In this document: positions 1 to 56,964 of the stretch, piece after piece
Position numbering within the stretch: position 1 is the stretch's first letter
How the letters are laid out: every line of letters begins with the position of its first letter
Assembly (NCBI GenBank): GCA_964291235.2
Contig: OZ219815.1
Coordinates: 544,001-608,000, forward strand
Source of the DNA: Vicinamibacteria bacterium
Lineage (GTDB): Bacteria > Acidobacteriota > Vicinamibacteria > Marinacidobacterales > Marinacidobacteraceae
Direction: 5' to 3'
DNA: 64,000 nucleotides
The notes under the pieces: model-generated
Seen by the model: the letters and a program-made list of their open reading frames with translations, nothing else
Databases searched by the model: none
Told to the model about the DNA's origin: nothing
Position numbers and translations under genes: made by a program

Positions 1-219
1 CATTGCCCGGAGATCCGCGCCGGCGCAGAAGACCTTTCCTTCACCGCGCAGGACAACCACGCGGCAGCGCTCGGCGGGAAGCGCCGCAAGTTCGTCCAGG
101 AGTTGCGGGATTCCCTCGACCATCTCCGGAGTGAGCGCATTTCTCGCCTCCGGCCGCTGGAGGGTGAGACGGACAACGCCGTCCGCGGCGCGATCAACGT
201 GCAGATGGGGAGAACTCAT
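1..219 (-). CDS. Enoyl-CoA hydratase/isomerase family protein (methylglutaconyl-CoA hydratase-like), N-terminal part; continues off the left edge
   Basis: Not in the ORF track. Manual translation MSSPHLHVDRAADGVVRLTLQRPEARNALT...VVVLRGEGKVFCAGADL has the crotonase RNAL and FCAGADL motifs. The ATG (217-219) overlaps the stop of the AtuA-like gene. Confidence 0.88.
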   Translation of the reverse strand, partial: MSSPHLHVDRAADGVVRLTLQRPEARNALTPEMVEGIPQLLDELAALPAERCRVVVLRGEGKVFCAGADLRAM

Positions 220-2108: not shown

Positions 2109-2137
2109 GACGCCGGCGCCTGTCTCAGTTCGGATCC

Positions 2138-3745
<1,608 letters not shown>

Positions 3746-24780: not shown

Positions 24781-25632
24781 ATGAGCAACCGCCTTAAGGT
24801 TTGGGCCGAATACCTCAAGATCGAACACACGCTGTTCTCCGTCCCCCTCATCTATGCGGGCGCCCTGTTGGCGGAACCGCCTCTGACGTTGCGTACGGCG
24901 GTATTGATCCTGGTAGCTGCCACCGGCGCGCGGACTACCGCTATGGGACTCAATCGGATCCTGGACCGTCACCTCGATGCGCAAAACCCCCGCACCGCAA
25001 ACCGCGCGCTGCCAGCCGGAAAGATCACGTTGCGGGGCGCGGCAGCCGTCGCCGTCGTCGCGTTCCTCATTTCCCTGACCGCTGCCTGGGCCATCTCGCC
25101 GCGCTGCCTCATCATCAGTCCCATTCCGCTGGCGGCCTTCTTCGCTTACCCACTCCTGAAGCGCTATACCAGATGGGCACACCTGGGTCTCGGCATGACA
25201 CTGGCTCTCGGTCCGATCTGTGGCTTCTACGCGGTGGCTCTGGAATGGCGCGGCCTGATCCCGATCGGACTGCTGGCTGCCTTTACCGCGCTGTGGTCCG
25301 CCGGCTTCGACATCTTGTATGCAACCCTTGACGAAGAGTCGGACCGAAGAACCGGAGTCTTCTCCTTGCCGTCGGCGATTGGAAGTCATCGCGCACTACA
25401 GGTCGCTGCCGGATTGCACTTTCTTGCCTATTGTGCGCTCGTTGCCCTCTTCTCGACTTCGCTTCATGGCATCTGGTCAGGTATGTTCTTCGCCTTGGCT
25501 GGTGTTTTGTTCGTCGTGCAGCACAAGCTCCGACACCACGTCGAGTTCGCGTTTTTCCAGGTGAATTCGGTTCTCGGCGGCGTCGTCTTTCTCGGCGTCC
25601 TGCTCTCCCATTCCCCGATGCCCATCCCATGA
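24781..25632 (+). CDS. mqnP: UbiA-family prenyltransferase of the futalosine pathway (MqnP-like)
   Basis: KIEHTLFS.P, ARTTAMGLNRILDRHLDA.NPRT..R.LP.G, GFDILYA.LD...D; adjacent to mqn genes. Confidence 0.87.
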   Translation: MSNRLKVWAEYLKIEHTLFSVPLIYAGALLAEPPLTLRTAVLILVAATGARTTAMGLNRILDRHLDAQNPRTANRALPAGKITLRGAAAVAVVAFLISLTAAWAISPRCLIISPIPLAAFFAYPLLKRYTRWAHLGLGMTLALGPICGFYAVALEWRGLIPIGLLAAFTALWSAGFDILYATLDEESDRRTGVFSLPSAIGSHRALQVAAGLHFLAYCALVALFSTSLHGIWSGMFFALAGVLFVVQHKLRHHVEFAFFQVNSVLGGVVFLGVLLSHSPMPIP

Positions 25633-26996: not shown

Positions 26997-28109
26997 GTGC
27001 TGCTTGCCGAAGGCGTCGCGTTTCGCGACCGAAACCTGGTCCCGGTCTGGGAGAAGGTTCTGGCGGGGGATCGCCTTGGTTTCGACGACGGAATCGCTCT
27101 CCTCCAGACAGTCGATCTGCCGGCGTTGGGCCGGATGGCCGACCACGCCGCCAGGCGGCGTAACGGCGACCGGGTGCAGTTCGTCGTAAACCGGCAGATC
27201 AATCCCACGAACCTGTGCGTGCTCTCCTGCGTCTTCTGCGATTTCGCCGCCAAACCGGGAGATGACCACGCCTACGAGCAGTCCCTCGAAGAGGTTCTCG
27301 CTCAGGTGTCCGAGGACCTGTCGGAAGTCCACATCGTCGGCGGCCTGCACCCCAAGTGGCCCTTCGCCCGCTATCTGGAGATCGTTCGCGAGATTCACCG
27401 GCAGTTCCCGAAGGTCCAGATCAAGGCGTGGACGGCCGTGGAGATCGACTGGTTCGCCCGACTGGAAAAAACCACCATCGAGGACATCCTGGTGCAACTC
27501 CAGGAGGCCGGCCTCAACTCCCTGCCGGGTGGTGGCGCGGAGGTGTTCTCCGACCGCGTGCGCAAGGAAACGTTCAAGACCAAGATCGGCCGGGCACGGT
27601 GGTTCGAGGTGCACCGGGCCGCGCATCGCCTGGGAATCATGACGAACGCGACCCTGCTCTACGGACACATCGAGACACTCGGCGAGCGCGTCGATCACAT
27701 GATCCAGCTCCGGGAAGCGCAGGACGGCTGCGGCTCGTCCGAGGCAGGGTTTCAGTCGTTCATTCCGCTCGCGCTCCAACCCGGAAACACCGGACTCGCC
27801 GAGCGTCAGGCGTCGGTGCTGGAGGATCTCCGGACCGTTGCCTGCGGGCGCCTGCTCCTCGACAACTTTCCCCACATCAAGGCTTACTGGGTGATGTTGG
27901 GCGAGGACTCGGCGGGCATGGCGCTGAACTTCGGCGCCAGTGATCTCGATGGGACGATCGGCGAAGAGAAGATCGCCCACTTCGCACAGGCAAAGAGCCC
28001 GATTGGCCTGGCCCGCGAGCGACTGGTCCGCATGATCCGGGACGCCGGCAAGATCCCCGTGGAGCGCGACGCGCTCTACAACGTGGTGCAAGTCTGGGAG
28101 GCTGCCTGA
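26997..28109 (+). CDS. mqnE: Aminofutalosine synthase MqnE (radical SAM)
   Basis: NPTNLCVLSCVFC, EVHIVGGLHP, KAWTAVEI, LPGGGAEVF, NATLLYGHIE, HIKAYWVM, DLDGTI.EEKI.H. Confidence 0.93.
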   Translation: MLLAEGVAFRDRNLVPVWEKVLAGDRLGFDDGIALLQTVDLPALGRMADHAARRRNGDRVQFVVNRQINPTNLCVLSCVFCDFAAKPGDDHAYEQSLEEVLAQVSEDLSEVHIVGGLHPKWPFARYLEIVREIHRQFPKVQIKAWTAVEIDWFARLEKTTIEDILVQLQEAGLNSLPGGGAEVFSDRVRKETFKTKIGRARWFEVHRAAHRLGIMTNATLLYGHIETLGERVDHMIQLREAQDGCGSSEAGFQSFIPLALQPGNTGLAERQASVLEDLRTVACGRLLLDNFPHIKAYWVMLGEDSAGMALNFGASDLDGTIGEEKIAHFAQAKSPIGLARERLVRMIRDAGKIPVERDALYNVVQVWEAA

Positions 28110-28119
28110 CCGCTCCGTA

Positions 28120-28923
28120 GTGCGCCTGCTGCTCGGGCAACTCGCCTACCTCAATACCCAGCCGTTCGAGCCCTTTCCGGGCCTGCGCGTCTTCCGGGCA
28201 TCTCCGTCCGAGATCGGCCGTCTGGCGGCGGCCTCCGAACTGGACGCCGGGCTTCTCTCGGTCGGAGATCTGCTGCGTTGCGAACGAGAGTACTCGCCGC
28301 TCGGTGACGCGCGGGGCGCCTTCGGAATCGCCTGCCGCAAGCGGGCGGGAAGCGTCTTCCTCCTTTCGCGGCACCCGCCGGAACAACTCGGGGGCAAGGT
28401 TGTCGAAATCACCAGGGAGACGTCGACCTCGGTGCTGCTCCTGCGCCTCTGGCTGGAACACAAGCTCGGTCTCGAGCTCCCGCGGTACCGCTCGGGGGTT
28501 ACCCGGGAGCACGACGCGTTGCTACTCATCGGGGACGAAGCGCTTCGGGAGCGGGAACGGCCCGACTCACGGTTTGCCTTCCGTATCGATCTCGCCGCCT
28601 GCTGGCGGGAATGGACCGGACTTCCGTTCGTCTTCGCGATCTGGAGCGCCCGGAGGTCGTTGACTTCCGCGAAGCGGTCGAAACTCCACGAAACCATCGC
28701 CACTTCGCTCGAGCGCGGGGTTGCGAGGATCCCCGAGATAGCGGCCGAGGCGCCAGGGCCGCTCGGCGACCGTTCGGCCATCACGCACTACCTCTCGGAT
28801 TTCACGTACCGTTTCGGAGAAATGGAGCGCCGGGGCTTCGGGATGTTCCGGCAACTGGCGATGGAAGCAAATCTGATTTCCTCTGCGGACGAGATGCAGG
28901 AGACCAACGGCGCGTCATGTTGA
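28120..28923 (+). CDS. mqnA: Chorismate dehydratase MqnA
   Basis: G.L.YLNT.P, SPS, S.TSV.LL, LLIGDEAL, DLA..W..WTGLPFVFAIW. Confidence 0.9.
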   Translation: MRLLLGQLAYLNTQPFEPFPGLRVFRASPSEIGRLAAASELDAGLLSVGDLLRCEREYSPLGDARGAFGIACRKRAGSVFLLSRHPPEQLGGKVVEITRETSTSVLLLRLWLEHKLGLELPRYRSGVTREHDALLLIGDEALRERERPDSRFAFRIDLAACWREWTGLPFVFAIWSARRSLTSAKRSKLHETIATSLERGVARIPEIAAEAPGPLGDRSAITHYLSDFTYRFGEMERRGFGMFRQLAMEANLISSADEMQETNGASC

Positions 28924-36507: not shown

Positions 36508-37167
36508 ATGACCAGCACCGCAACGCCGCGTCCGCGCTCCTCGACCCGCGAGTACTTCGAGTCGATCTGCGCCGCGGTGATCCTCGCGCTGTTCGTGCGC
36601 ACGTTCGTCTTCCAGGCGTTCAAGATTCCGACCGGTTCCATGCAGGACAACCTCCTGATCGGTGATCACCTGATGGTGAACAAGATGCTGTTCCACGATG
36701 GGGGAGGCGTTCTCCTGCCGTCGCGCGACGTGGAGCGCGGCGATGTGGTGGTCTTCAAGTTCCCCGAGGAACCGGATCGGGACTTCATCAAGCGCATCGT
36801 GGGACTGCCGGGCGAGACGCTCCAGATCGGGCGGAGGCAGGTTCTCATCGACGGGGATCCCCTGCCCGAGGACTACACCCGCTTCGTGCACGGTGGCCAG
36901 CCCGCCATGCGCGAGTACCGCGTTCCCGACGGACACTATTTCGTCATGGGGGACAACCGGGACAACAGCGATGACAGCCGTTACTGGGGCCCGCTTCCGG
37001 CCGAGAACATCAAGGGGAAGGGCCTGTTCATCTACTGGTCGTACGGAGCGCCGCGCGAGGAATACCTCGAGACCAGACTTTCCCAGCGGCTCGTGGATCT
37101 GCTCCTGCTGCCGGTGCGCTTTTTCTCGCGCACCCGCTGGGATCGTTTCTTCATCCCGGTCCAGTAG
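36508..37167 (+). CDS. lepB: Signal peptidase I
   Basis: IPTGSM, GD.L.VNK, DFIKRIVGLPG, MGDNRDNSDDSRYWG. Confidence 0.96.
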   Translation: MTSTATPRPRSSTREYFESICAAVILALFVRTFVFQAFKIPTGSMQDNLLIGDHLMVNKMLFHDGGGVLLPSRDVERGDVVVFKFPEEPDRDFIKRIVGLPGETLQIGRRQVLIDGDPLPEDYTRFVHGGQPAMREYRVPDGHYFVMGDNRDNSDDSRYWGPLPAENIKGKGLFIYWSYGAPREEYLETRLSQRLVDLLLLPVRFFSRTRWDRFFIPVQ

Positions 37168-37211
37168 GGCGCCGGTCCAGTAGGGAAGCGCCGCCCGGCG
37201 GCGCCGGCGAG

Positions 37212-37919
37212 TCAGGCGCCCCGCCGGCCGAAAATCGCGGTTCCGACGCGGATCGTGGTGGCCCCCTCGGCGATCGCGACTTCGAAGTCGTGGCTCATCC
37301 CCATCGACAGCTCGGGCTCGCGCGGCAGCAGCCCGCCATCGGCACACCGGTCCCCGAGTTCCCGGAGCCGAACGAACCACGGGCGGACCGTTTCCGGGTC
37401 GGGATCGAACGGCGGAATCAACATGAGCCCGGAAAGCTTGAGACCGGGCAGTCGCGCGATCGCCTCCAGCGCGCCCGGCAGCTCCGGCTCCGGAATCCCG
37501 AATTTCGAGGACTCGCCGGCAAGGTCCACTTGCGCCAGAACCCGGATCGGCGCCCCCCCGGGCGGAAGGACTCCCTGTGCCACCATGCCGCTCAGCCGGG
37601 TAGCCAGCGAGACGCTGTCCACGGACTGAATCACCGGAAACAACCCCACCGCCTGCCGGGCCTTGTTGCGCTGGAGATGCCCGATCAGGTGCGGGGTGAT
37701 CGAAACCCGGAGCGCCGGCAGCTTCGAGGCCGCCTCCTGAATCCGGTTCTCGCCGAAATCGCTGATCCCCAGCGCGGCCGCCGCCTCGATATCCGCCACC
37801 GGCCGCGTCTTGGAAACCGCGACCAGCCGAACCCCTGCCGGGTCTCGACCAGCCCGGCGGCAGCTCTCACCAATGCGGTCCCGCACGGCGGCGATACGTT
37901 CGGACAACGAAGAACTCAC
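37212..37919 (-). CDS. yggS: PLP homeostasis protein YggS
   Basis: [50 protein letters not shown]. Confidence 0.96.
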
Positions 37920-39922
37920 GGCAGGGACTCCAGAAAGGTGGTGGCTTCTTCCAGACTGGTGGTCAGGGGAAACGGAGGGAGGCTGCGGACGAGGCGCCGG
38001 CCGTAACCCATCCGCACCAGACGGGAGTCCAGGACCGCGGCGAGCCCGACATCCTGCTGCGTCCGGATCAGCCGGCCCAGGCCCTGTTTCAGCGTGAGGG
38101 CCGCCTGCGGCACCGAATAGTTGGCGAAGCCGTCGCCGGTCGCCTCCTCGGCGCGCTCGGCGCGCGCCTGGTGGAGAGGGTCCGACGGCACCGGGAACGG
38201 CAGCTTGTCGATCACCAGCAACGTGAGCGCCTCTCCGGGGATGTCCACCCCTTCCCAGAAGGAACGAACCCCCAGGAGGACCGCGTTGGGAGTCTTGCGG
38301 AAGGAACCCACCAAGGCGGCGTTTCCGCCGCCCCGGTGCTGCCGCAACACCGGGAAGGGACAGGCCTCACCGAGCACGCGCCCCACGCGTTCGAGGTTTC
38401 CCCAGCTCGTGAAAAGGATGAGGGCTCGGCCCCGGCTGGCGTGGACCAGGTGGAGAACCTGTTCGGCGACGGCGTCCTGAAATCCCGGATGGCGCGGGCT
38501 CACCAGGTCGCGCGGGACGTAGAGCCTTGTCTGATCCTCGAACCGGAAGGGGGAAGAGACGACGCTCCCTGCCGTGGCGGCCACTCCGAGGCTGTCCGCC
38601 GCGTAGTCGAAGCCGCCGTCCAGCGCCAGGGTCGCGGACGTCAGCACGCACGACTTCAGTGGGTCGAACAGCCCCTGCCGCAGCTCGCCGCCGGGATGCA
38701 CGGGAGCGGCGCTCGCATAGCACGTGCGTCCGCCCCGGGACGCCGCTCTCGCCTTTCCTGCCTCCGCCCGACCGTTTTCCCTGCGGAAGACGCTCCAGTG
38801 GACGTAGTCGGGACGCGGCGTCATCAAGGCCCGCAGCTCGACCCGGAACTCGCTCACCCGCTTCAAAAAGCGCTCCGCGCCGGTCTCGGCGTCGCTTTCG
38901 TCGGGGGGTGGACTCTCCCTCAGAGCCTCGCGGACCTTCAGAAGATGCTTCTCGAGCGCCTCGAGCTGCCAACCGGCCGCCTCCTCGTGCTCCTTCGCCT
39001 CCGCGCCAAGGGTGTCCGGGACGAAAAGACGCGGGCCGTCATCGCGTTCGGGAGCAAGGATCTCAAAGAGATCGCGATAGGCGCGTTTCAACTTCCGGAG
39101 GGCTGGAAGCGCAGTGAGACCGGGAGCCGCACGCTTCAGAAAACGTGTCAGGTCGGTCGCCAGGCGGTCGGCCGCCGCCCCCGAGAGGGTGCTCGAGAAC
39201 CCGTGGGTGGCGGCGTCCTCGAGCCGGTGTGCTTCGTCCACGATCAGGTGGTCGTACTCGGGAAGCACCTCGCCGAAATCGGTCTGACGCACGATCAGGT
39301 CGGCAACGAGCAAATGGTGGTTCACGATCAGAATCTGGCTCGTATGCGCCCGCTTCCGAAGGGTGGTCAGGTGGCACTCCTCGTGGTGCGGGCAGCGGCG
39401 GCCGATGCAGTTCTCGGAAATGGTGGATATTCCGCGCCAGAAATCGAGGGAACCGCGAAGTCCACGGATTTCGTCCCGGTCTCCGGTCCTGGTCTTCTCC
39501 GCCCAGGACGCGATGCGCCGGAGATCGGCGCCTCGCCGGGGATCGAGCTTCAGATTCCGGGCCGTCTGAAACTTCTGCCACTCCAGCCGGCAGAGATAGT
39601 TCTCGCGTCCCTTCATGCGCGCCGCGGGAACCCGGCTCCCCAAGATGCTCTGAAGCTGGGGCAGATCCTTCTCGAAGAGCTGGTCCTGGAGGTTCTTGGT
39701 CGCCGTGGAGATGACGACCCTCTCGCCGCAAAGAAGCGCCGGAATGAGATAGGCGAACGACTTGCCGATCCCCGTTCCGGCCTCGATCATCAGCGTGGCG
39801 TTGAGGTTCAGCGTCTCCTCCACCCGCGCGGCCATCTCCACCTGTCCGGCGCGATATTCGAAGTCCGGCAGCGCCTCGGACAGGGCCCCGTGGGGACCGA
39901 GAAAATCGGCCGCCCGGCTCAT
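37916..39922 (-). CDS. DinG/YoaA-family Fe-S DNA helicase
   Basis: [20 protein letters not shown], Cys cluster (CIGRRCP...C), [24 protein letters not shown]. Confidence 0.94.
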
Positions 39923-40093
39923 CTAGGGACTCTCCCGCACGAGTCGGCGCTCGGGTGGCCGGCTCTGGCGCAATCCACCGGTTGGGGCGCGGCGGCGGCG
40001 ATCAGGGCGCCGGGTTTTCGCCGCCGCCGGCGGCGGTGCGGGTCGGCAGGCTCCCACCGGGCGGACGGGCGGCGCTCCTCGCACCCGGCCGGT

Positions 40094-41374
40094 TCACGCC
40101 GCCGGCGACACGTAGAGCGGAAATCCCGAGGCAAGTTCGGCCACCTCGTCGGCTATCCGGGCCAGGCCTGACTCGTCGTCCGCCGCGCGAAGGGCGGCAT
40201 CCATCAGACGGGCCACCTCGACCATCTCGTTCTCCCGCATGCCACGCGTGGTGAGCGCCGCCGTGCCCAGCCGGATACCGCTCGCGATCATCGGCTTTTC
40301 GGGATCAAAGGGAATCGTGTTCTTGTTCGCGGTAATTCCCGCGGCCTCCATCGCCACCTCGGCGTCCCGACCCGTAACTCCCCGGGCGCCCACGTCCACC
40401 AGCACGAGGTGGTTGTCCGTTCCCCCGGAAACCAGCCGGAATCCCTGGGCAACGAGCGCCTCGGCCAGCGCCTTGGCGTTCTTCACGATCTGGCGCGCGT
40501 ACTCGGCGAACGACGGATCGAGCGCCTCCCGGAAACACACCGCCTTCGCGGCGATCGTGTGCATCATCGGCCCACCCTGGATCCCCGGGAAGGTGATTCG
40601 GTTGAGAGCCTTCCCGTAGCCCTTCTCGTTCCAGAGAATGAGCCCGCCCCGCGGGCCGCGAAGCGTCTTGTGGGTCGTGGTGGTGACGACGTCCGAATGG
40701 GGGACCGGACTCGGAATTGCGCCCCCGGCGACCAATCCGGCGACGTGAGCGATATCGGTGACCACTTTCGCGCCGACATCGTCCGCGATCTGGCGGATTT
40801 CCTCACTGGGGTAGAGACGCGGATAGGCGCTCGCCCCCACGATGATCATCTTGGGCCGGTGCTCCCGCGCGAGCCGCTGCAACGCGTCGAGATCGATGCG
40901 CTCGTCCTCCCGGCGCACCCCGTAGGCAATCGGCCGATAGAACTGCCCCGAAAAGTTGAGCGGGTGGCCGTGGGTCAGGTGCCCTCCCTGATCGAGGGCC
41001 ATTCCCAGGAAAGCGTCTCCGGGCTCCAGAATCGCCTGGAAGGCGACCATGTTCGCCTGGGAGCCGCTGTGGGGCTGGACGTTCGCATACCGGGAGCCGA
41101 AGAGTTCCTTGGCCCGGTTCCGGGCCAGCCTTTCCGCTTCGTCCACGTGGACGCAGCCGCCGTAGTACCGCCGCCCCGGGTAACCCTCGGCGTACTTGTT
41201 GGTCATCACCGAACCGGTGGCCTCCATCACCGCGTCGCTCGCGAAATTCTCGGACGCAATCAGTTCGAGGCCCTGCGACTGGCGTATCTCTTCGGCCTCG
41301 ATGGCGGCGGCGATCTCGGGGTCCCGCTCAGAGAGGCTGGGACCGAGGCGGCGACGGGAAAAGGAACTGCTCAC
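40094..41374 (-). CDS. glyA: Serine hydroxymethyltransferase
   Basis: [46 protein letters not shown]. Start is GTG 41374 or TTG 41434. Confidence 0.97.
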
Positions 41375-41430
41375 GGGAGCGCCAGTATAGGACCGCCCGG
41401 GGGGACTCCGGTCAGGTGGAACCCGGTGAC

Positions 41431-42342
41431 TCAAAGAACGTAGGCCACCGCAAACCCCAGTTGGGCCACCATCATCATGAGGTACATGTGGCGCCAGGAC
41501 ACGTGGTTGCTGTCCGTCGCCAATTCATCCGGACGGCGCAGCATCAGCCACGCCGTGAAGATCCCGTAGAGCATCAGGATGGCGCCCAGCGCGTCCAGCA
41601 GCAGAGGATTGCCGGTCAGCAGATTCATCCGCACCCCAAGCGGGATGAGCGCGAAGGGCAGGACGAAGAAAGGCGCGATCCGCCATGCCGCGCCCCGGGG
41701 GCCGTACTCGATCGGAAGGGTCCGGCAGCCACCCGCACGGTCCCCCGCGACGTCCGAAAAATCCTTGGTCGTGGTGGCTCCCAGCAGGAACAGCCCGAAG
41801 ATGAGCCCGATGAACCAGGGTTCGGGATCGAACACGGTCTTGAGCGCGGACCAGCCCGCTACCTTGAGCAACAGCCCCCGGGGAATGGCGACCGTGAGAT
41901 TGGCCAGCATCCCGAGCCGTTTTGTCCGCAGCGGCGGCGCCGAGTACATCCACACGAAGACGCTCGCCACCAGCACGATCACGAAGCACTCCCGCCGGCC
42001 GTCGGGATTCACGAACCAGGCGGCGGCAAGCGCGAGCAGCCAGCAGACCGCCGTGAACCACCAGGCCTCGGCGAGTCCGAGCCGCCCGGAAGGAAGGGGC
42101 CGGTCCGGTTTCGTGATGCGGTCGATGCCGAGGTCGTAGATCTGGTTGAGGGCGTTGCTGGCCGCGTTGAGGGTTGCAGCCATCACCGCGCCCAGGACGG
42201 GATAGATCCAGGGGACGTTCTCGAGCGCCGGAGGGGCCCCCAGTGCGGTGACGCTGCCGCTCAGGAAACCGATCAGGGGTGGCAGGAGGGTGAACGGGCG
42301 CGAGAACTCGCGATAGAGGGCGAGGCGCGCTCCGAGGCTCAC
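41431..42342 (-). CDS. UbiA-superfamily prenyltransferase, homogentisate phytyltransferase/chlorophyll-synthase-like
   Basis: [48 protein letters not shown]...TLP. GTG overlaps the DUF92 stop. Confidence 0.85.
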
Positions 42343-43061
42343 CCGGCGCCTCCGCCGCTGGCGATCCACCCCCAGCCGAACGCCAGGAGTCCGCCAGCCG
42401 ACACGGAAACGGCATTCACCCCGTTGTTGTCAAGCACTCCGCGGGCCTCGAGCGGGGAAAGCAGACCTTCCAGCAGGGCGGCGAGGAAGCCGGCCCCCGA
42501 CACCGGCAGGAGCCACGCCAGGGGAATGAGATCGCCGCCGGTGGCCGCGGCGCCGACAGAAAAAGCGGCCAACAACCCGGCGAGCGAGCCCCCGAGGCTG
42601 ACGCCGCCCGGCGTGCCGGCCGTCGCCCGGGAGAGATCCGGAAGGCGCCTGACTGGTCCGCCAAAGGACTTCCCAACCTCGGACGACACCGTGTCGGCGG
42701 CGCCAGTGGCGAGCGAACCGACGAACGCGGCCGCGGCCGGCGCCGCCCAACCACCGGGGAGCACCCCCGCGAGCGCGCCGAAGACGACCGCCGGTCCCCC
42801 GTTCGCGAGCACCTGCCGCGGTTCCCGGGCGCCGCCCCGGGCTTCGGCGATCCCGAGCGCCCGCTTGCGGCTCCAACCGATCCGCGTTGCCAGGGCGCCC
42901 AATGCGAAGTAGAGGAGCAACACCAGATACCCCGGCCAGCCCAGACCCAGGATCACCGCGCCGCCCACGAAGAACCCGGCGAAAGCACCCCGGCCGGTCA
43001 CGGTCCTGAGACGCCAGCCGCAAAACGCGAGGGATCCGTTCAGCAGGAGAAGAAGAGTCAC
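42339..43061 (-). CDS. DUF92/COG1836 (TMEM19, VTE6-like) membrane protein
   Basis: K...GIAE..GG.R...QVLANGG, ADTVSSEVG, GT.GGVS..GS.AG, NN.VN. Confidence 0.87.
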   Translation of the reverse strand: MTLLLLLNGSLAFCGWRLRTVTGRGAFAGFFVGGAVILGLGWPGYLVLLLYFALGALATRIGWSRKRALGIAEARGGAREPRQVLANGGPAVVFGALAGVLPGGWAAPAAAAFVGSLATGAADTVSSEVGKSFGGPVRRLPDLSRATAGTPGGVSLGGSLAGLLAAFSVGAAATGGDLIPLAWLLPVSGAGFLAALLEGLLSPLEARGVLDNNGVNAVSVSAGGLLAFGWGWIASGGGAG

Positions 43062-43122
43062 GCTTCGAGACGAATCGATGCACCGGGGTATGGCGGGAAG
43101 TCGGGGGGTCGGGCTCCAGGCA

Positions 43123-45354
43123 TCAGTAGTAGCTGTCGCGGCCTCCTCCGGCGCCGAAGCCGAAACTCGTGATCCCTCCCAGGGTGATGCCGAAGTGGAA
43201 AATGTTCTCGTTACGGCTCGTCAGGTTGTAACGGATCCATTCGACGTTGAGCCCGCAGCACTGGAAGAGGAAATCGGCGCGCAGGCGGATGTTGGAGAGC
43301 CGGCGCTCGCTGATGTCGTAGTTGACGTCAACCCCGGTGCGGATCACTTCGGTGGGAAAGAAATCGGTTCCCGCCCGGAGATAGCTTTTGACGCTCACCT
43401 CGTCGCTGTCATCGCCGCCAATCCGGCGGGCGCGGCGCGACCAGTTGAAGTTGAACCGCCGGTTCGACAGTCGGTCTCCAATCCGGACACCAGTCCGGAT
43501 CGAGGTGAACAGCCGCTCGTCCGGATCCCATTCCATGGTCCAGTCGCCGTTCACGCTCTGGTCCGGCGTAAAACGGAAATCCGATCGGATCGGAGACTTC
43601 CGAATCTCCACTTCGCTGTCCTCAAACGAGGAAGAGACGTACTGGGAGTCATACGCCCCCGCCGTCGGATCGAAATACCAGCTCTGCTGGATGCGCCAGG
43701 TAATGACGTCCGTCGCGGAGGACTCCTCCACGCCGTCGCGGTACCGTTTCGCCAGCACCCGGTTCACGAGTCCGAAACTGATCTGGTTGGCCTGGGACGA
43801 GCTGTCGTAGCGGTCGAAGCGATTCACCAGGTCGAACTTGTCGTCACTCTTGCGGTAGTCCCACGATGCCTCGGGCTCGATGAGGTGCTTGTAGCGAGCG
43901 GCGTAGAAGCCTCCCGGGGTGTCAAAGATCCGCTCCAGCTTGGGTCCCGACATCTGGACCGAGGTTCCGTAAAACCGCCGGCTCAACTGCAGATCGGGCG
44001 TGAACTCGTCGGTCTCGGGATCAATGGAGCCGCCGTACCGCAGGTACCCCGCATCGATTTCAGCCCGCAATTGCAGGAAGGGAACCTCCGGCATCGAGAT
44101 CCCGAGCGTCGGCCCCACGAAGAGCCGGTTCCATTCCTGGAAGTCGTCCCGGCGCGAGCGGCCCACCCGCACGTAGTTCGTCTCGTAGCTGAGTTGCACG
44201 AACTGACTCAGCAGGTTGAGGTTGCGCCGGGAAATCGAGAACTGCGGCAGCGTCTGCCGGACACTGCTCCTGGACGTGTACTGCGTGTCCTTGCGATCGA
44301 TCTTGAACTTGATCCGGTGGCGGAAGAGTTGGCCGCTCAGGTCCACCTTGGTCCGCTTGTACCTCCGGGTGGAACGCGAAAAAGAGTCCTGGAAGCGCCG
44401 GCTGAAATCGAAACTGGAGAAGATGTCGCCAGCGGCGCTCAGTCGGAATCGCGCGGGCAGCCGCTGCGCCACGTTGAAACTGAGGGAGTACTCACGATTC
44501 TCGGTGGTCTTGTCATTGATGAGGAAGCCTTCGGCTTCGCCACGGGAACCGCTGGGGCCGCGATAGCGGTACTCCATCCCGAGACCGGTTCCCGACACCG
44601 TGAAATGGTCCACGCTCAGCGTCGTGTCCATCGAGCGGTTGATGGCCCAGTAGAAGCCCTGGCTGAAGAGGTGGCCCCGGAGGTCGGAACGGCTGTAGCG
44701 CGGAATGAGGAAGCCGGTCTGCCGGCCATCCTCCTCAAGCGGGTAGTAGAGCGCCGGGAAATAGGTCACCGGGACGTTCTTGACGCGGAACGACACGTTG
44801 CGCAACCAGACGTGTTTCTCCGGCCGGACGACGGCGCGACTGGCGGTGAAGTTCCAGCGGGGATTCGGCTGCGCGCAGGTCGTGAACGCGCCCTGTTCGA
44901 TGGCGAACGCTCCGTCTTCCAGTTCCTCGAGGGTCTCGGCCACGAAGTGGAAGTCCTGCCCGAGAACGCCCCTCGCATTCCGAAAGATGGCGGTGCCGCC
45001 CTCAAGACTTCCCTCCATGGACTCGGCGACCACCTTCTCGTCGCGCCGTTCAAAAACGACGTTGCCCGTCGCCCGCACCCGGAGGGCTTCTTCGTCGATT
45101 TCGATGCGGTCGGCCTGTATCCGAAGTCCGCCGTAGGCCACTTGTGCGTAGCCGTCGAGGACGACCTGCGAACCCTCGCGACTGACGCGTTCCGCACGCG
45201 TGATCATGGTGCCCGCGGGCGGCGGGTCGTGGCTCCAGGCGACCGGTGGGTGTTCTCTGTCTCCCTGGTTCCGCCGCTGGCCTCTTTGGGAGCCCTGGAC
45301 GAGCACCGGAAGGGCAACGGCAAACCCCAGGAGCACGACCGCGGAAAGACGCAT
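43123..45354 (-). CDS. lptD: LPS-assembly outer-membrane protein LptD
   Basis: Signal peptide, OstA-like A-D-R-I jellyroll, FTTC....P.W, RQTGFLIP, FYWAINRSMD.T, C-terminal QCC. Confidence 0.87.
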   Translation of the reverse strand: MRLSAVVLLGFAVALPVLVQGSQRGQRRNQGDREHPPVAWSHDPPPAGTMITRAERVSREGSQVVLDGYAQVAYGGLRIQADRIEIDEEALRVRATGNVVFERRDEKVVAESMEGSLEGGTAIFRNARGVLGQDFHFVAETLEELEDGAFAIEQGAFTTCAQPNPRWNFTASRAVVRPEKHVWLRNVSFRVKNVPVTYFPALYYPLEEDGRQTGFLIPRYSRSDLRGHLFSQGFYWAINRSMDTTLSVDHFTVSGTGLGMEYRYRGPSGSRGEAEGFLINDKTTENREYSLSFNVAQRLPARFRLSAAGDIFSSFDFSRRFQDSFSRSTRRYKRTKVDLSGQLFRHRIKFKIDRKDTQYTSRSSVRQTLPQFSISRRNLNLLSQFVQLSYETNYVRVGRSRRDDFQEWNRLFVGPTLGISMPEVPFLQLRAEIDAGYLRYGGSIDPETDEFTPDLQLSRRFYGTSVQMSGPKLERIFDTPGGFYAARYKHLIEPEASWDYRKSDDKFDLVNRFDRYDSSSQANQISFGLVNRVLAKRYRDGVEESSATDVITWRIQQSWYFDPTAGAYDSQYVSSSFEDSEVEIRKSPIRSDFRFTPDQSVNGDWTMEWDPDERLFTSIRTGVRIGDRLSNRRFNFNWSRRARRIGGDDSDEVSVKSYLRAGTDFFPTEVIRTGVDVNYDISERRLSNIRLRADFLFQCCGLNVEWIRYNLTSRNENIFHFGITLGGITSFGFGAGGGRDSYY

Positions 45355-45426
45355 CCGGCGACGATCCGCGCAATCCGCGGGCCGCCGTGAAGGAATCACG
45401 GTGGGATTCCAGTCCCGCCGTCGTTC

Positions 45427-45627
45427 AACAGCCTGTGGCAAAACCCCCAAGGCCCAGTTCTCCCGGTGGGGGCTCGAGCGGCGATGCATCCCGTCTGAAC
45501 CGCGCCTCTACGAGGCGCTCATCGTTGCGTTTCGGTCGAAATACACTCGGTATTCCTCCCTCACGCGCCTTGTCAGCCGGGCGCCTCGCCACTCTCGGCG
45601 CTCACGGGGGTTTCACCACAGGCTGTT
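45427..45627. mobile_element. ~200-bp MITE with 22-bp terminal inverted repeats
   Basis: AACAGCCTGTGGCAAAACCCCC (45427-45448) and GGGGGTTTCACCACAGGCTGTT (45606-45627) match at 20/22. The core is shared with 46248-46395. Confidence 0.78.
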
Positions 45628-46237
45628 AGCGCGCCGGCTCGTAGTACGGGTTCGTTCCGGCGGCGTGGTCGGTGGTGTCCAGGATGGCGCCGATCTCCGG
45701 AACCGCCCGGCGCAGGATCTTCTCGACTCCCTGGCGGAGAGTGGCGGTGGCCATGCCGCACCCCTGACATCCCCCTCCCATGCGAATGAAGACCTGGTTG
45801 CGCTCAACTCCCACGAGGTCGATGTACCCACCGTGGGAGGCGACCGCCGGGTTGATTTCGTCCCGCAGGACGGCCTGGACACGATCCCGGATGTCTTCCG
45901 GCGCCGGGAGGCCCTCGAGCAGCGCGGGGTCCACCGCCGGCTCCGCTCCCTCGAGGACGGATCGGATTCGCTGGCCCGCCTCGCGTCCGATCGGCATCCA
46001 GTTGGCCTGGTTCTCTGCCGCGGTGACCGTGATCAGGTTGTCCTGGATGAGGACCCCTGCAACCCCGGGAATGCCCAGGAGTTCGCGCGCCAGCGCGGAA
46101 CCTCCGGCCGGTCCGGCGGAGTCGAAATAGGCCGATCCCCCGGGGAACACGGGACGGTCAATCACAAACCGGCAGGTCGAGGCGTCGCGCGGCTCGGCCC
46201 GAATGCGGATCGCGGGAGCGGGCGGCGGAAGAGACAT
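45626..46237 (-). CDS. NfuA/NifU-like Fe-S carrier (Nfu_N + NifU_C domains)
   Basis: S.LA..L..IPGV..V.I....ITV; EINPAVASHGG.I, GGGCQGC, TLRQGVE, D.TDH..G.NPYY. ATG at 46237. Confidence 0.9.
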   Translation of the reverse strand: MSLPPPAPAIRIRAEPRDASTCRFVIDRPVFPGGSAYFDSAGPAGGSALARELLGIPGVAGVLIQDNLITVTAAENQANWMPIGREAGQRIRSVLEGAEPAVDPALLEGLPAPEDIRDRVQAVLRDEINPAVASHGGYIDLVGVERNQVFIRMGGGCQGCGMATATLRQGVEKILRRAVPEIGAILDTTDHAAGTNPYYEPAR

Positions 46238-46247
46238 GAAAGAAGCG

Positions 46248-46395
46248 TAGCAGTCTGCGGAGAAAATGACGTGAGCACGGAGAACGGTGAGACGCCCGGC
46301 TGACGAGGCGTGTGAGGGAGGAATACCGGGTGTATTCCGACCGAAACGCAACGATGGGGGCCGCATGGCGGCCCGTTCAGACGGGATGCATCGCA
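46248..46395. mobile_element. Second, inverted and diverged MITE copy
   Basis: The reverse complement GCGATGCATCCCGTCTGAAC...CATCGTTGCGTTTCGGTCGGAATACACCCGGTATTCCTCCCTCACACGCC... aligns with 45481-45627. The distal end is unclear. Confidence 0.78.
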
Positions 46396-46808
46396 GCCAC
46401 CGGTTGCCGGCAACGCACAGGCAAGGCGGAGGCCAGTGATATCGGGTGACAGCGTCGGGCATCCGGGAGTTCAGGAAACCGGCACGCTCCGCTTCCGGAC
46501 AATGAATCGCCGCGGGGATTTCTGAATCGCACCGGCGCGCCGGATACGGGATACGGATCGGTGGAGCGCTGAAATCGGCGCATTCCCCCGGGATGCGGCG
46601 CCGGATCGCCGGAATTCCCGCGCCGAACCGTCCGTCCCCGGCCACCGCCGCCCCGGGCGCATCCCTTGCGCCTCTTGAAGGACATGCACGGCAACGCGCC
46701 CAAGCCGCCCCGGGTCCCGGAAACCACTCGAATTCAAAGAACACCGGTTCTGCCCCGGGCGAAGCGCCGAAGCCGGCTTTCCAAACCCCCAAGGAGAACA
46801 ACTTCCCC

Positions 46809-49682
46809 ATGAAACACATCACTTTCCTGGCGCTCGCTCTCGCGGTGCTGGCCGGCGCCCCGGCGTTCGGCCAGACCGCGGGAGAAATCGAGGGCCGGGT
46901 CACCGACTCCCAGGGTCTCGCCATCCCCGGAGCGACCGTCACGCTCTCCGGCGAAGCCCTGATCACCGAACAGCGGACCGTCACCCTGAGTGACGGCTCC
47001 TACCGGTTCCGATCGCTCCGTCGCGGCGCGTACGACCTTCGGTTCGAGATCTCCGGATTCCAGATCCTCCTGCGCGAAGGCATCATCGTCGAGGGGAACC
47101 GGACCATCACCGTCCCGGTGACCCTCGAAGTCGCCACGGTCGCGGAAACGGTCACGGTCACCGGCGAAGCGCCGGTGGTGGACGTCCGCACCACGGCGCT
47201 ATCCACGGACTTCGGGACCGAGGCCCTCCATGAGGTGCCCTCCGCAACCGATGTCTGGGCGGTGCTCGCCCAGACGCCGGGCGTACGGATGCGCGGCTAC
47301 GACGTCGGCGGCAGCCACAAGAGCCAGCAGACGGGCTACGAGAGCTTCGGGATCCGCCGCCAGAACCGGATCCTCGCCGACGGCGTGGACACCACCGAAG
47401 GGGAAAGCGGCACCGGCTTCTACTTCGACTACTACTCCATCGAGGAGTTCACCACCTCGGCCGCCGGCGCCGACGTCGAGATGACCGGACCCGGCTCGAT
47501 GGTCGTCATGACGATGAAGAGCGGCGGCAACGAGTTCAGCGGGCTCCTGCACGCCGACTACGAGCATGAGTCGTTCGTCGGCAACAACGTGGACAGCGAG
47601 CTGGAGTCCCGCAACTTCACGGGCAATCCGAACATCCTGTTCTGGGAAGGCCACGCCGACCTCGGCGGGCCGATCGTGGAGGATCGCGCCTGGTTCTACG
47701 GCTTCTACAACCACTTCCGCATCGACAAGCAGGTCTCGGGGGTGGATCCGAACCTGGCCACCGACCTCGGCGACTTCGACCAGTTCGGCGGCAAGGTCAC
47801 CGCGCAGTTGACCAGCCGGGACCAACTCATCGCCTACACCAACTACCAGTTGAAGCAGAAGCCGAAGCGCGGCCTCTCGAACACGGTGGGTCCCGACTCG
47901 GTCCTGGCCCAGGACAGTTGGAGTTGGGCGCACAAGGGCGAATGGCAGCGCGTCTGGGACGACCGGACCTTCTCGACCTTCGCCGTCAAGCACTTCGGAT
48001 TCGGTTGGCCGATGGTGCCGCAGGTCGATCCGGAGTCGAACCCGCCGCGGTTCGACCAGGCAACCGGCATCCACACCGGCGCCGGCTGGAACACCAACAT
48101 CACCGGGACGCCGCCGTTCACGTTTGAGCGCTGGAAGCCCCAGGTGACGGCCACCGTGAGCCACTACGTGCCCGACTTCCTCGGCAGCCATGACTTCAAG
48201 TTCGGCTACGACTTCCAGATCGACGCCCGGAAATTCGGCGCCAACTCGAACTCCGGTCACGTCCGCTACATCGACGACAGCTCCCAGGGCCGGCCGCTGG
48301 ACGTGGACCAGATCGCGCTGTTCAGCATGCCCGCCGACGGCCAGATCAACGCCGATTCGCGGAACACCCATCACGACGTGTTCGCCCAGGACACCTGGCG
48401 GCCGATCGCCCGGCTGACGCTGAACCTCGGCGTCCGTTTCGGGCAGCAGCGGACTCATTTCCTCGACTCGGAGTCGAACCCGCTGTTCGCCGACTTCTTC
48501 CCGACCGGGGTGACCCAGGGACAGACCCTCGTCACCTGGAACACCTGGGCGCCCCGGGTGGGAGCAACCTATGAGCTCGCGGCGGGAACGGTGCTGAAGG
48601 GTCACTACGGCCGCTACTACGTGAACCTCGCGGACGCGCACCGCCGCGCCGACCCGGCGAACGTGGCCTGGACCCGGTTCGATTTCCTCGATCAGAACGG
48701 GAACGGCCTCTACGACGGGGCGAGCGAGCTCGGCACGATTCGCGCAACGAGCGGCGCTACCGGTACGGCCCTGCGGACGCTGGGCACGCCGGTGAACCCG
48801 AATCTGCAAAAGGAATACGTGGATGAGTTCAGCGTCTCCTTCGAGCACGAACTGGTCGCGGACACCGCTCTGCGCGCGTCCTTTGTCCGCAAGCAGCTCA
48901 ACGCCGACAGCGGGCAGTGGAACGTTCCGCAGCAGACCGCGCTCCTCGAGGGACGCGGCATCCCCTGCGGCACAGACTTCGAGTGTCCGACCAACGCGCT
49001 CACCGGGGCGCCGATCAACGTACAGCGGGTCCCGGACGACGTCGCCAACGTAGTGGACATCCAGACCGACACGTTCCCCGACATGGCGGCCAGCTACGAC
49101 ACCTTCCAGATCGCGGCAAACCGTCGTTTCGCGGGTGGATTCTTCGTGCAGGCGAGTTTCGACTACCAGTGGCGGGACGAGTACCGCGCCGCTTCGGGAG
49201 AATCACGAAGCCCCCTGACGGCCGACCCGATCGACGTGGGCTCCGACGGACACGGCACGATCTGGCAAAACCACAGCCTCGACGTCCCCTTCCGCCAGGA
49301 AACCACGAACTGGAACGGGCGCCTGCTCGCCCGCTACACACTGCCCTACGGGGTCGCGGTGTCCGGAAACGTGCGCTACCAGAGCGGCTGGCCGTGGGCT
49401 CCGATCCAGCGGGTCTCGATTCCCGGTTCGGGCACCCAGCCGATCTTCCTCTCGAACCTCGATGAAAACCGCTCCGACGCGGTGACGCTCGCCGATTTCC
49501 GGATCGAGAAGAACTTCGAGGTCGGCAACGGCTCGCTCCTCACCGCGATGGTGGACGTGTACAACGCCCTGAACTCCAACGCGGTTAGCAACTTCAATCT
49601 GCGGACGGGCGCGAATTACAACAACGTGATCGCCGCCCTCGATCCCCGCGCCGCCAAGGTCGGCCTCCGCCTGACCTTCTGA
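46809..49682 (+). CDS. Oar-like (TonB-dependent receptor family) outer-membrane protein with N-terminal carboxypeptidase-regulatory-like domain
   Basis: AAGGAG RBS, signal peptide, G.V.D.QG..IPGATV, ETVTVTGE.P.VD, KSGGNEFSG, LGGPI..DRAWF, QD.W, PRVG, terminal LTF. Confidence 0.9.
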   Translation: MKHITFLALALAVLAGAPAFGQTAGEIEGRVTDSQGLAIPGATVTLSGEALITEQRTVTLSDGSYRFRSLRRGAYDLRFEISGFQILLREGIIVEGNRTITVPVTLEVATVAETVTVTGEAPVVDVRTTALSTDFGTEALHEVPSATDVWAVLAQTPGVRMRGYDVGGSHKSQQTGYESFGIRRQNRILADGVDTTEGESGTGFYFDYYSIEEFTTSAAGADVEMTGPGSMVVMTMKSGGNEFSGLLHADYEHESFVGNNVDSELESRNFTGNPNILFWEGHADLGGPIVEDRAWFYGFYNHFRIDKQVSGVDPNLATDLGDFDQFGGKVTAQLTSRDQLIAYTNYQLKQKPKRGLSNTVGPDSVLAQDSWSWAHKGEWQRVWDDRTFSTFAVKHFGFGWPMVPQVDPESNPPRFDQATGIHTGAGWNTNITGTPPFTFERWKPQVTATVSHYVPDFLGSHDFKFGYDFQIDARKFGANSNSGHVRYIDDSSQGRPLDVDQIALFSMPADGQINADSRNTHHDVFAQDTWRPIARLTLNLGVRFGQQRTHFLDSESNPLFADFFPTGVTQGQTLVTWNTWAPRVGATYELAAGTVLKGHYGRYYVNLADAHRRADPANVAWTRFDFLDQNGNGLYDGASELGTIRATSGATGTALRTLGTPVNPNLQKEYVDEFSVSFEHELVADTALRASFVRKQLNADSGQWNVPQQTALLEGRGIPCGTDFECPTNALTGAPINVQRVPDDVANVVDIQTDTFPDMAASYDTFQIAANRRFAGGFFVQASFDYQWRDEYRAASGESRSPLTADPIDVGSDGHGTIWQNHSLDVPFRQETTNWNGRLLARYTLPYGVAVSGNVRYQSGWPWAPIQRVSIPGSGTQPIFLSNLDENRSDAVTLADFRIEKNFEVGNGSLLTAMVDVYNALNSNAVSNFNLRTGANYNNVIAALDPRAAKVGLRLTF

Positions 49683-56724: not shown

Positions 56725-56764
56725 AGCGCGGGACTCCGGCAGGCGCCGGCCCACACCAGGGGGT

Positions 56765-56794
56765 TGGACATTCGGCGGCGTCCGGCCGTATCAT
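56765..56794 (+). promoter_or_regulatory. Sigma70-like promoter of the second receptor gene
   Basis: TGGACA-18 nt-TATCAT, about 170 nt upstream of ATG 56965. Confidence 0.4.
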
Positions 56795-56964
56795 CGCTCC
56801 ACGATTTTGAATTCACCGCGCCGTTTCTGGATCAACACAGCCACCCGGAATTCCAACCTATTGAAAAACCTGATAGATGCAGGACACCCGGCCAGAGTCT
56901 TCGGTGGCATGTCAGTTGCGAGTTGCGGTCATCAATCTTTGTCTTACCCGTTGAAGGAGGGACC

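Follow-up and report, generated by a model that had tools for sequence, protein, structure and literature searches.

What could two overlapping genes, one for a DUF92/COG1836 (VTE6-like) protein and one for a UbiA-superfamily prenyltransferase, do in a marine acidobacterium that is not photosynthetic? The genes are located at positions 41,431-43,061 of a 64,000-nt stretch of contig OZ219815.1 (assembly GCA_964291235.2, Vicinamibacteria bacterium), referred to here as the window. The host genome (G000) comprises 3.45 Mb in two contigs (C1 and C2), is 90% complete, and was scanned as 23,062 open reading frames (ORFs). The answer that we favour, with moderate confidence and from comparison of sequences, is that the two proteins would carry out the last two steps of a pathway in which a prenol is activated and transferred to an acceptor.

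The DUF92 gene (42339..43061, minus strand) encodes a stand-alone protein of 240 aa that scores 130.6 bits against PF01940 (cut-off 27.5) and is a candidate CTP-dependent prenyl-phosphate kinase. The UbiA gene (41431..42342, minus strand) encodes a prenyltransferase of an orphan clade (P0001), which scores 127.4 bits against PF01040 (gathering cut-off 34.2). The minus-strand letters across the junction of the two genes read ...GGAGGCGCCGGGTGAGCC... The TGA stop of DUF92 (42341-42339) and a GTG in the UbiA frame (42342-42340) overlap as GTGA (42342-42339), as the original prediction had described, and GGAGG is present at 42353-42349, six bases 5' of the GTG; the whole translational coupling site occupies 42339..42353 on the minus strand. 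The longest ORF form of the UbiA gene (41431..42369, minus strand) would encode 312 aa, and the product is taken as 303 aa because the coupled GTG start has GGAGG upstream. Both genes are under purifying selection, with dN/dS values against six close relatives of 0.08-0.19 for UbiA and 0.19-0.38 for DUF92 (0.07-0.15 for glyA). A promoter and terminator scan of positions 37000-47200 was uninformative, with no promoter-like site and four terminator-like sites, against 7.2 expected from shuffles. Prediction of a complex between the UbiA and DUF92 proteins returned "no answer" (score 0.00), which is evidence neither way.

The association of the two genes was followed in an even sample of 201 Acidobacteriota genomes including the host, in which a genome was counted as UbiA-positive at E <= 1e-20, co-occurrence was tallied by eye and adjacency was counted by script. 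UbiA is present in 70 genomes from 33 families and DUF92 in 93 genomes. Both genes occur in 69 of the 70 UbiA-positive genomes (67 of 68 without the unpublished genomes G024 and G152), and DUF92 occurs in 24 of the 131 genomes that lack the clade UbiA. The genes are adjacent in 43 of these 69 genomes (37 in tandem, two in tandem with a split UbiA hit, one with a 1.2-kb gap and three convergent) and lie on different contigs in 26. Among the 80 best loci, a set collected with the 16-row alignment A2 that contains Vicinamibacteria-type loci only, DUF92 is directly upstream of UbiA in 77, convergent in one (L066), cut by a contig end in one (L084) and not found in one (L094). The expectation that the pair is conserved together is therefore borne out. 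Three loci of this kind (L055, L073 and L094) are titled Acidimicrobiia or Bifidobacteriaceae; their UbiA proteins are 63-64% identical to that of the window and their lptD context is of the Vicinamibacteria type, and these contigs are probably mis-binned or mislabelled.

Domain fusions provide a second link. A Pfam scan of 14 longer-than-typical proteins (342-953 aa) among 150 representatives identified two DUF92-UbiA fusions (P0174 and P0236). The minus-strand run that contains the pair consists, in order, of an nfu-like gene, lptD, DUF92, UbiA, glyA, a DinG-like helicase gene and yggS. Two unrelated membrane-protein genes could in principle have been kept beside lptD by chance, since many of the syntenic genomes are related and the downstream genes glyA, dinG and yggS of the same run are clearly unrelated to the pair. 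Such an explanation is highly improbable, however, given the co-occurrence in 69 of 70 genomes across 33 UbiA-bearing families, the existence of fused forms, the stop/start overlap with its ribosome-binding site and the persistence of the pair while its flanks differ between orders.

All five UbiA motifs named in the original prediction are present in P0001: FSRPFT (residues 12-17), an NQxYDxxIDxIxKP-type motif (66-79), YSAPPLRTK (133-141), PRG (154-156) and KDFSDVAGD (193-201). The superfamily signatures NxxxDxxxD, DxxDxxxD and Tyr-x5-(K/R) were all found. Across 60 members of the clade, conservation is complete or at least 90% at N66, D70, D74, Y133, R139, D194, D197 and D201, and these residues match motifs 1-3 of MjDGGGPS, whose definitions and roles come from the work on that enzyme covered in the relevant sections of a review (PMC9385802).

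Membership in a characterised family was judged from curated hidden Markov models (HMMs). The top NCBIfam model for P0001 is the ChlG model PRK07566 (NF005742), with 128.2 bits against a cut-off of 313, followed by PRK12884, an unnamed archaeal-type prenyltransferase model (117 against 269), and the BchG model TIGR01476 (106.7 against 212.3). Scores also fall below the cut-offs for the DGGGPS models NF009521 and NF009522 (93.7 against 296 and 71 against 353), homogentisate phytyltransferase (HPT) NF009525 (81 against 226), TIGR02056 of the ChlG/BchG set (69.8 against 436.45), haem o synthase (46.3 against 210), MqnP (38.9 against 430) and UbiA (28.8 against 275). The protein was correctly described as nearer to ChlG and HPT than to MqnP, and by the curated cut-offs it does not group with a characterised quinone or haem enzyme. 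No Rv3806c-type family model is among the 25 best NCBIfam matches. An HMMER scan of 1.84 billion cluster representatives recovered 170 clusters (50% identity, E <= 1e-30), and none of the 150 nearest representatives matches any NCBIfam model at E <= 1e-45. Matches in the ESM Atlas are acidobacterial UbiA clusters only. By HMM cut-offs and PDB ranks, rather than by a tree with characterised references, P0001 is placed in a large orphan clade within the ChlG/DGGGPS/HPT part of the superfamily.

The rest of the genome is also relevant to the question of a known function. A separate UbiA gene had been noticed near 24.8 kb, and the ORF at 24781-25632 (plus strand) is indeed such a gene, with 149.6 bits against PF01040. 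It shares 32% identity with P0001 over 76 residues only, among solved proteins it is closest to ApUbiA (109 bits), which is of the quinone type, and it adjoins MqnC-like (26997-28109) and MqnD-like (28120-28923) genes. It is one of two UbiA genes present in the genome besides that of P0001. Matches to Photo_RC (PF00124, E <= 0.01) and tocopherol cyclase (PF14249) were not found in the 90%-complete genome, which extends to the genome, for these two families, the earlier statement that the window lacks photosynthesis and tocopherol genes. It is thus very improbable that P0001 is a divergent ChlG, an HPT or a second quinone or haem prenyltransferase. ChlG is its top model, HPT reaches 81 bits, and some of the names given to close homologues at JGI match this reading, but all of the scores are far under their cut-offs, the 150 representatives match no NCBIfam model at the threshold above, a quinone-type and a third UbiA gene are already present, and the JGI names are mutually inconsistent (including both "4-hydroxybenzoate polyprenyltransferase" and "chlorophyll/bacteriochlorophyll a synthase").

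An AlphaFold (AF2) model of P0001 based on an alignment of 60 clade members has a pLDDT of 97. It has the nine-helix membrane fold of the superfamily, with Foldseek probabilities of 1.00 to 6m31, 4tq3, 4od4 and 8djk and TM-scores of 0.68-0.81. The closest solved fold is that of MjDGGGPS (6m31, 26% identity, TM 0.73/0.79), whereas the membrane phosphoribosyltransferase of the Rv3806c type (8j8j) is below it (TM 0.62/0.64). Sequence matches to solved proteins are led by MjDGGGPS at 79 bits (E 3e-21), with ChlG at 66 bits and ApUbiA at 37 bits. P0001 shares with MjDGGGPS the N/Asp-rich motifs (1 and 3) and the Tyr motif (2), as these are laid out in the sections of PMC9385802 dealing with that enzyme; it differs in scoring under the family cut-offs, in its ChlG-like motif-2 region and in that no GGGPS partner was found (PF01884, GGGPS/PcrB, E <= 0.01, 90%-complete genome). 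In ChlG/BchG (9sas) the YSAPPL(R/K)xK stretch aligns with that of P0001, in contrast to the family cut-off, which is far above the score of P0001, and to the photosynthetic context of that family. According to Hemmi 2004, as cited in the same review in the part covering relationships (PMC9385802), UbiA enzymes group by acceptor rather than by donor. By analogy, P0001 probably transfers its prenyl group onto oxygen; an O-prenylated lipid is our guess for the product because the nearest characterised families, ChlG and DGGGPS, both prenylate oxygen.

A special case of this is that a DGGGPS-like P0001 etherifies a glycerol-phosphate-based acceptor to give a mixed isoprenoid ether lipid of the archaeal type. 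MjDGGGPS is the closest solved protein by both sequence and fold, and DGGGPS-like genes are widespread among bacteria, according to the available part of PMC6431249. The genome also carries, at G000:C1:963793-971052, a gene for a 1398-aa multidomain protein, which we take to resemble the myxobacterial ether-lipid enzyme ElbD, with a CDP-alcohol phosphatidyltransferase gene nearby, and an alkyl- or acyl-glycerol phosphate derived from such genes might be the acceptor. This possibility is distinctly unlikely, as P0001 is below both DGGGPS cut-offs, GGGPS/PcrB was not found in the genome (90% complete), the ElbD-like locus is 380 kb away, and it is to ChlG rather than to DGGGPS that the YSAPPLRxK region can be aligned. 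The 1398-aa protein contains reductase (NAD_binding_4), AMP-binding, carrier and acyltransferase domains, and its gene is followed by genes for an SDR, a DAG-kinase-like protein and the CDP-alcohol phosphatidyltransferase. An SDR with 34% identity, the closest to the HpnA-like reductase described below, was considered as the reductase of the module and discounted, as it sits in this ElbD-like locus.

The preferred reading, activation of a prenol followed by transfer, also depends on the DUF92 protein and on the kinase step that would precede it. At every one of the 12 positions that are invariant in the 27-row alignment A5, among them D123, T124 and E128, the DUF92 protein has the conserved residue. 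In most relatives DUF92 is not a separate protein; it makes up the C-terminal half of a longer polypeptide of some 450 aa (median across 29 genomes, 465 aa), in which the N-terminal half bears a weak resemblance to CTP_transf_1 (25.7 bits in G033). Comparison of the DUF92 profile with the profile of this kinase-like N-domain gave an hhalign probability of 90.8% (E 1.2e-6), and DUF92 is proposed to be a paralogue of the VTE5-like protein within the same superfamily of CTP-dependent cytidylyltransferases and kinases. COG1836 has been predicted to act in phytyl-phosphate metabolism (PMC3223725 and PMC9782597, in the passages that deal with it). In their section on this family, Makarova et al. 2015 (PMC5898192) found COG1836 to be homologous to cytidylyltransferases and, in some archaea, to be joined in one protein with a dolichol-kinase-like domain. 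Archaeal arCOG02245, which is COG1836 with an N-terminal COG0170 domain, has the same two-domain architecture as the acidobacterial relatives, and the homology of the two halves noted in that section is recovered here. It differs in that its conserved neighbour is uppS and not UbiA or lptD, as far as that section of PMC5898192 goes, and in that the window protein is the unfused C-terminal half only, a form that arose in one lineage.

The missing half was located elsewhere in the host genome. A gene for a 236-aa VTE5-like protein is present at G000:C1:47538-48248, about 540 kb from the window, where it immediately follows a gene for a MobA-like NTP-transferase. When the 23,062 ORFs were searched with an HMM of 22 fusion N-domains that excluded the lineage of the window, a single match was obtained (C1:47169-48245, E 8.3e-13). 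In the N-domain alignment including the separate protein, no variation is seen in the H, GD, E and DN columns, and the separate gene is 67-85% identical in five of five relatives searched. A search of PDB sequences with the N-domain profile returned one match only (E 0.39). Of the 201 genomes, 79 have a strong match to the N-domain profile (at least 129 bits), among them 69 of the 70 UbiA-positive ones, in a tally by eye in which the match of the host itself is present by construction; the suggested co-occurrence of the pair with VTE5/dolichol-kinase-like genes is thus seen. The stand-alone DUF92 form occurs in all 15 of the closest loci (77-91% UbiA identity), 13 of which have lptD directly upstream; the other two are truncated by the end of a contig. 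The DUF92-domain tree, which has a midpoint root only, places the eight stand-alone rows in one group (support 100/99) among 22 fused rows. By parsimony, the kinase would have been split once, in the lineage of the window.

The proposed pathway would then begin with the VTE5/dolichol-kinase-like membrane protein, which would phosphorylate a free isoprenoid alcohol to a prenyl phosphate. The DUF92 protein would add the second phosphate to give a prenyl diphosphate, as VTE6 does with phytyl phosphate, and UbiA would move the prenyl group from this allylic diphosphate, with Mg2+ bound by the two Asp-rich motifs, to a hydrophobic acceptor. We infer each of these activities, as well as the chain length of the alcohol, the acceptor, the cellular role and salvage as the source of the alcohol. 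The scheme resembles phytol salvage in plants and cyanobacteria (VTE5, VTE6 and VTE2/HPT-ChlG-MenA) in having a CTP_transf_1-like kinase, DUF92 and a UbiA of the ChlG/HPT branch in the same order of action. Unlike the phototrophs, the window organism is non-photosynthetic, with reaction-centre and tocopherol-cyclase genes not found; its UbiA belongs to no phytyltransferase family by the cut-offs; and in most acidobacterial relatives both kinases are one polypeptide, in a block with lptD and deoxysugar genes. Assay data for VTE6 are said to have been reported by vom Dorp and co-workers in 2015.

This block was surveyed in 40 loci from 31 genomes, one per family, with ORFs of at least 100 aa clustered. 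The recurrent clusters are UbiA and the fused kinase (29 genomes each), SDR-type enzymes (22) and LptD (18). The usual order is a MEMO1-like gene, lptD, rmlA, an rmlC-like gene, rmlB, two further dehydratase/epimerase-like genes and rmlD, followed by an HpnA/SdmB-like extended SDR, the fused kinase and UbiA. The products of rmlA, rmlB and rmlD exceed the NCBIfam cut-offs, whereas the SDR beside the kinase scores 126-228 bits against an HpnA cut-off of 368. lptD is also upstream in the Vicinamibacteria loci. In the window, the lptD gene (43123..45489, minus strand; LptD_2 E 4.4e-15, PRK03761 E 6.9e-26 but below cut-off) is directly upstream of DUF92, with a gap of 61 nt, and the locus, having lost the reductase and N-domain as well as the sugar genes, is reduced to lptD-DUF92-UbiA. 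The glyA gene (serine hydroxymethyltransferase; 40094..41434, minus strand; SHMT 526.6 bits) directly follows UbiA; this arrangement is confined to the 15 closest loci, and glyA is left out of the module. The suggestion that a place after lptD hints at an envelope role gains from the retention of this position in 18 of 31 genomes from 31 families. A gene of the ICMT family is directly downstream of the UbiA orthologue in G176 (L015:4276-4848), followed by a gene for an AMP-binding enzyme.

The same neighbourhood is the ground for the main rival reading, in which the kinases, with a secreted phosphodiesterase, recycle polyprenol or polyprenyl phosphate for lipopolysaccharide or a rhamnose-containing polymer; this is unlikely, and it is just as doubtful that UbiA takes polyprenyl phosphate as its acceptor, in the manner of the mycobacterial decaprenyl-phosphate phosphoribosyltransferase. 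Such a carrier-lipid cycle would account for the conserved order of lptD, rmlA/B/C/D-like genes, reductase, kinase and UbiA, with three of the sugar genes over their cut-offs, and for the kinase remaining with lptD and the sugar genes where UbiA has moved. It would also fit uppS as the sole conserved neighbour of COG1836 in archaea, according to the section of PMC5898192 on this family, and the signal peptide of the phosphodiesterase (recognised by eye), which would place the enzyme outside the cytoplasm. The mycobacterial pathway of phosphoribosyltransferase, phosphatase and epimerase is similarly composed of a UbiA fold, phosphatase-type and SDR-type enzymes and sugar genes, but polyprenyl phosphate is the acceptor there and a second kinase is not needed. 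P0001, however, scores far higher on ChlG/DGGGPS/HPT models than on any other, and its match to the fold of the membrane phosphoribosyltransferase is weaker than that to DGGGPS. A carrier cycle requires the monophosphate, so that it is hard to see what a second kinase, one that makes the diphosphate, would contribute, whereas the DUF92-UbiA fusions fit a diphosphate that is passed to UbiA as donor.

Further partners of UbiA were indicated by the remaining fusions. In P0128, P0219 and P0251 UbiA is extended at its C-terminus by a Phosphodiest domain, which belongs to the alkaline-phosphatase superfamily, and FA_desaturase is fused to UbiA in P0139. The host genome encodes both as separate proteins: a 766-aa Phosphodiest protein (G000:C2:633024-635324), 39% identical to the fused domain, and a 348-aa desaturase-family protein (G000:C1:357642-358688), 51% identical to the fused domain. 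The desaturase has orthologues (E <= 1e-40) in 35 genomes besides the host, 34 of them UbiA-positive; the remaining one is a genome of 73% completeness. Phosphodiesterases of this family are common, occurring in 127 of the 201 genomes, yet 45 of the 46 best non-self matches are in UbiA-positive genomes. In G033, G088, G148, G170, G200 and G124, which represent three families by our own tally, the phosphodiesterase and kinase genes are no more than about 1.1 kb apart. The N-terminus of the phosphodiesterase looks like a signal peptide and is accompanied by a hydrophobic hairpin, both judged by eye. From the model and the known topology of the family, the C-terminus of UbiA is predicted to be outside the cytoplasm, and the fused phosphodiesterase domain would therefore be periplasmic. 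A search of PDB sequences returned nothing for the phosphodiesterase and nothing for the desaturase, and in the ESM Atlas the desaturase falls in generic "fatty acid desaturase" clusters, one of which carries Lipid_DES on 12% of its members and is a lead only. No further pathway genes were found beside the three dispersed genes in this genome. The original prediction of a two-gene module does not stand in that form: the pair is not self-contained, as almost every other lineage has the domain for the preceding kinase step fused to DUF92, and the phosphodiesterase-family and desaturase-family genes elsewhere in the genome also track UbiA.

The product of UbiA may be further processed by these membrane desaturase-family and secreted phosphodiesterase-family enzymes. 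It is probably a lipid of the cell envelope, because of the company of the desaturase, the secreted phosphodiesterase and the HpnA-like reductase and the context of lptD and rhamnose genes. A more far-reaching version, which is tentative and rather unlikely, is that the lptD-linked block is a closed cycle that builds an undescribed class of isoprenoid-anchored outer-membrane lipid or glycolipid. UbiA would O-prenylate a lipid or sugar-lipid acceptor at the cytoplasmic face, the desaturase-family enzyme would modify the product, and the product would be exported to the outer membrane; the secreted phosphodiesterase would then free the prenol in the periplasm for re-activation by the two kinases. 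If true, such a cycle would explain why a "salvage" pair is found in non-photosynthetic bacteria beside lptD and rhamnose genes throughout the phylum.

Several observations weigh against the prenol activation-and-transfer pathway. The DUF92 protein scores 127.6 bits against TIGR00297, under the cut-off of 205.85, and fused relatives are also under it (159 and 184.5 bits). The separate VTE5-like protein scores 21.7 bits (E 2e-4) against PF01148 (CTP_transf_1), under the cut-off of 24. Its model (pLDDT 90) weakly matches CdsA 4q2g (Foldseek E 1.3e-2, TM 0.36), and VIA comparison with CdsA gave Z 8.3 with an rmsd of 5.7 over 163 residues, which is in the range of unrelated helical bundles. The UbiA and kinase genes are on different contigs in 26 of the 69 genomes, and nine genomes have a fused kinase without the clade UbiA (E <= 1e-20). 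In several of the 26, namely G005, G057, G027, G012, G061 and G143, the kinase is beside lptD and the sugar genes and UbiA is elsewhere, so the kinase may have a role in a further pathway as well. The genomes counted are related and not independent, and the counts overstate the support and show a pattern rather than a probability. The host also has a short-chain prenyl-diphosphate synthase, 45% identical to the FPP synthase that neighbours UbiA in G005, so that the donor need not stem from salvage. We know of no biochemistry on any bacterial member outside phototrophs.

The locus of G005 (contig C40; L010/L146) has UbiA apart from the kinase and directly after this FPP-synthase gene (NF045485, 276.4 bits against a cut-off of 275), with genes for a PagL lipid A deacylase and a GT2 just upstream of the two. 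In the host genome, polyprenyl-synthase matches at G000:C2:2357-3085 are split across three reading frames, perhaps because the gene is frameshifted or the assembly is in error this close to the start of the contig. A gene for AtuA (acyclic terpene utilisation) adjoins a carboxyltransferase gene at 216-3745 of the window (minus strand) and suggests that this organism degrades acyclic isoprenoids, a trait of possible relevance to the source of free prenols.

The DUF92 and UbiA parts are of known kinds, and both the predicted role of COG1836 and the archaeal fusion have already been published. According to the relevant part of PMC10849223, the genes for prenol and prenyl-phosphate kinases known as of 2024 are only from plants (VTE5, FOLK and VTE6) and Plasmodium (PolK). 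A description of the module in non-phototrophic bacteria was not found in the literature searched, from which subscription journals were mostly out of reach; the tie of DUF92 to an orphan UbiA clade, the lptD-linked block and the desaturase and phosphodiesterase partners are undescribed in that literature. Co-occurrence, fusion and phylum-wide synteny tie DUF92 to one orphan UbiA clade and to lptD, which offers a testable route to the function of DUF92 in ordinary bacteria and to the product of a large UbiA clade, and possibly leads to a new envelope lipid of Acidobacteriota. This phylum is dominant in soil and marine environments, and its membrane lipids serve as environmental proxies. The split kinase and the stripped-down locus are particular to the window, which represents a natural experiment: the fused kinase was split and the sugar genes left, and DUF92 and UbiA stayed coupled behind lptD.

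A few other features of the window and genome were recorded. A cluster at G000:C1:863169-874416 contains two cytochrome P450 genes and genes for radical-SAM, AMP-ligase and steroid-5-alpha-reductase-family proteins, together with a gene for a geranylgeranyl-reductase-like flavoprotein (TIGR02032, 132 bits, below the cut-off of 158.8), and may be a tailoring cluster for lipids or terpenoids. The lowest G+C content of the window is at 24-26 kb (0.605, against about 0.67). The first 147 residues of a 452-aa ORF at 23232-24590 (minus strand) match histone H1-like HC2 (E 9e-13). Two outer-membrane beta-barrel proteins of about 1030 aa with CarboxypepD_reg, a type typical of Acidobacteriota, are encoded at 46593-49682 and 56764-59859 (plus strand).

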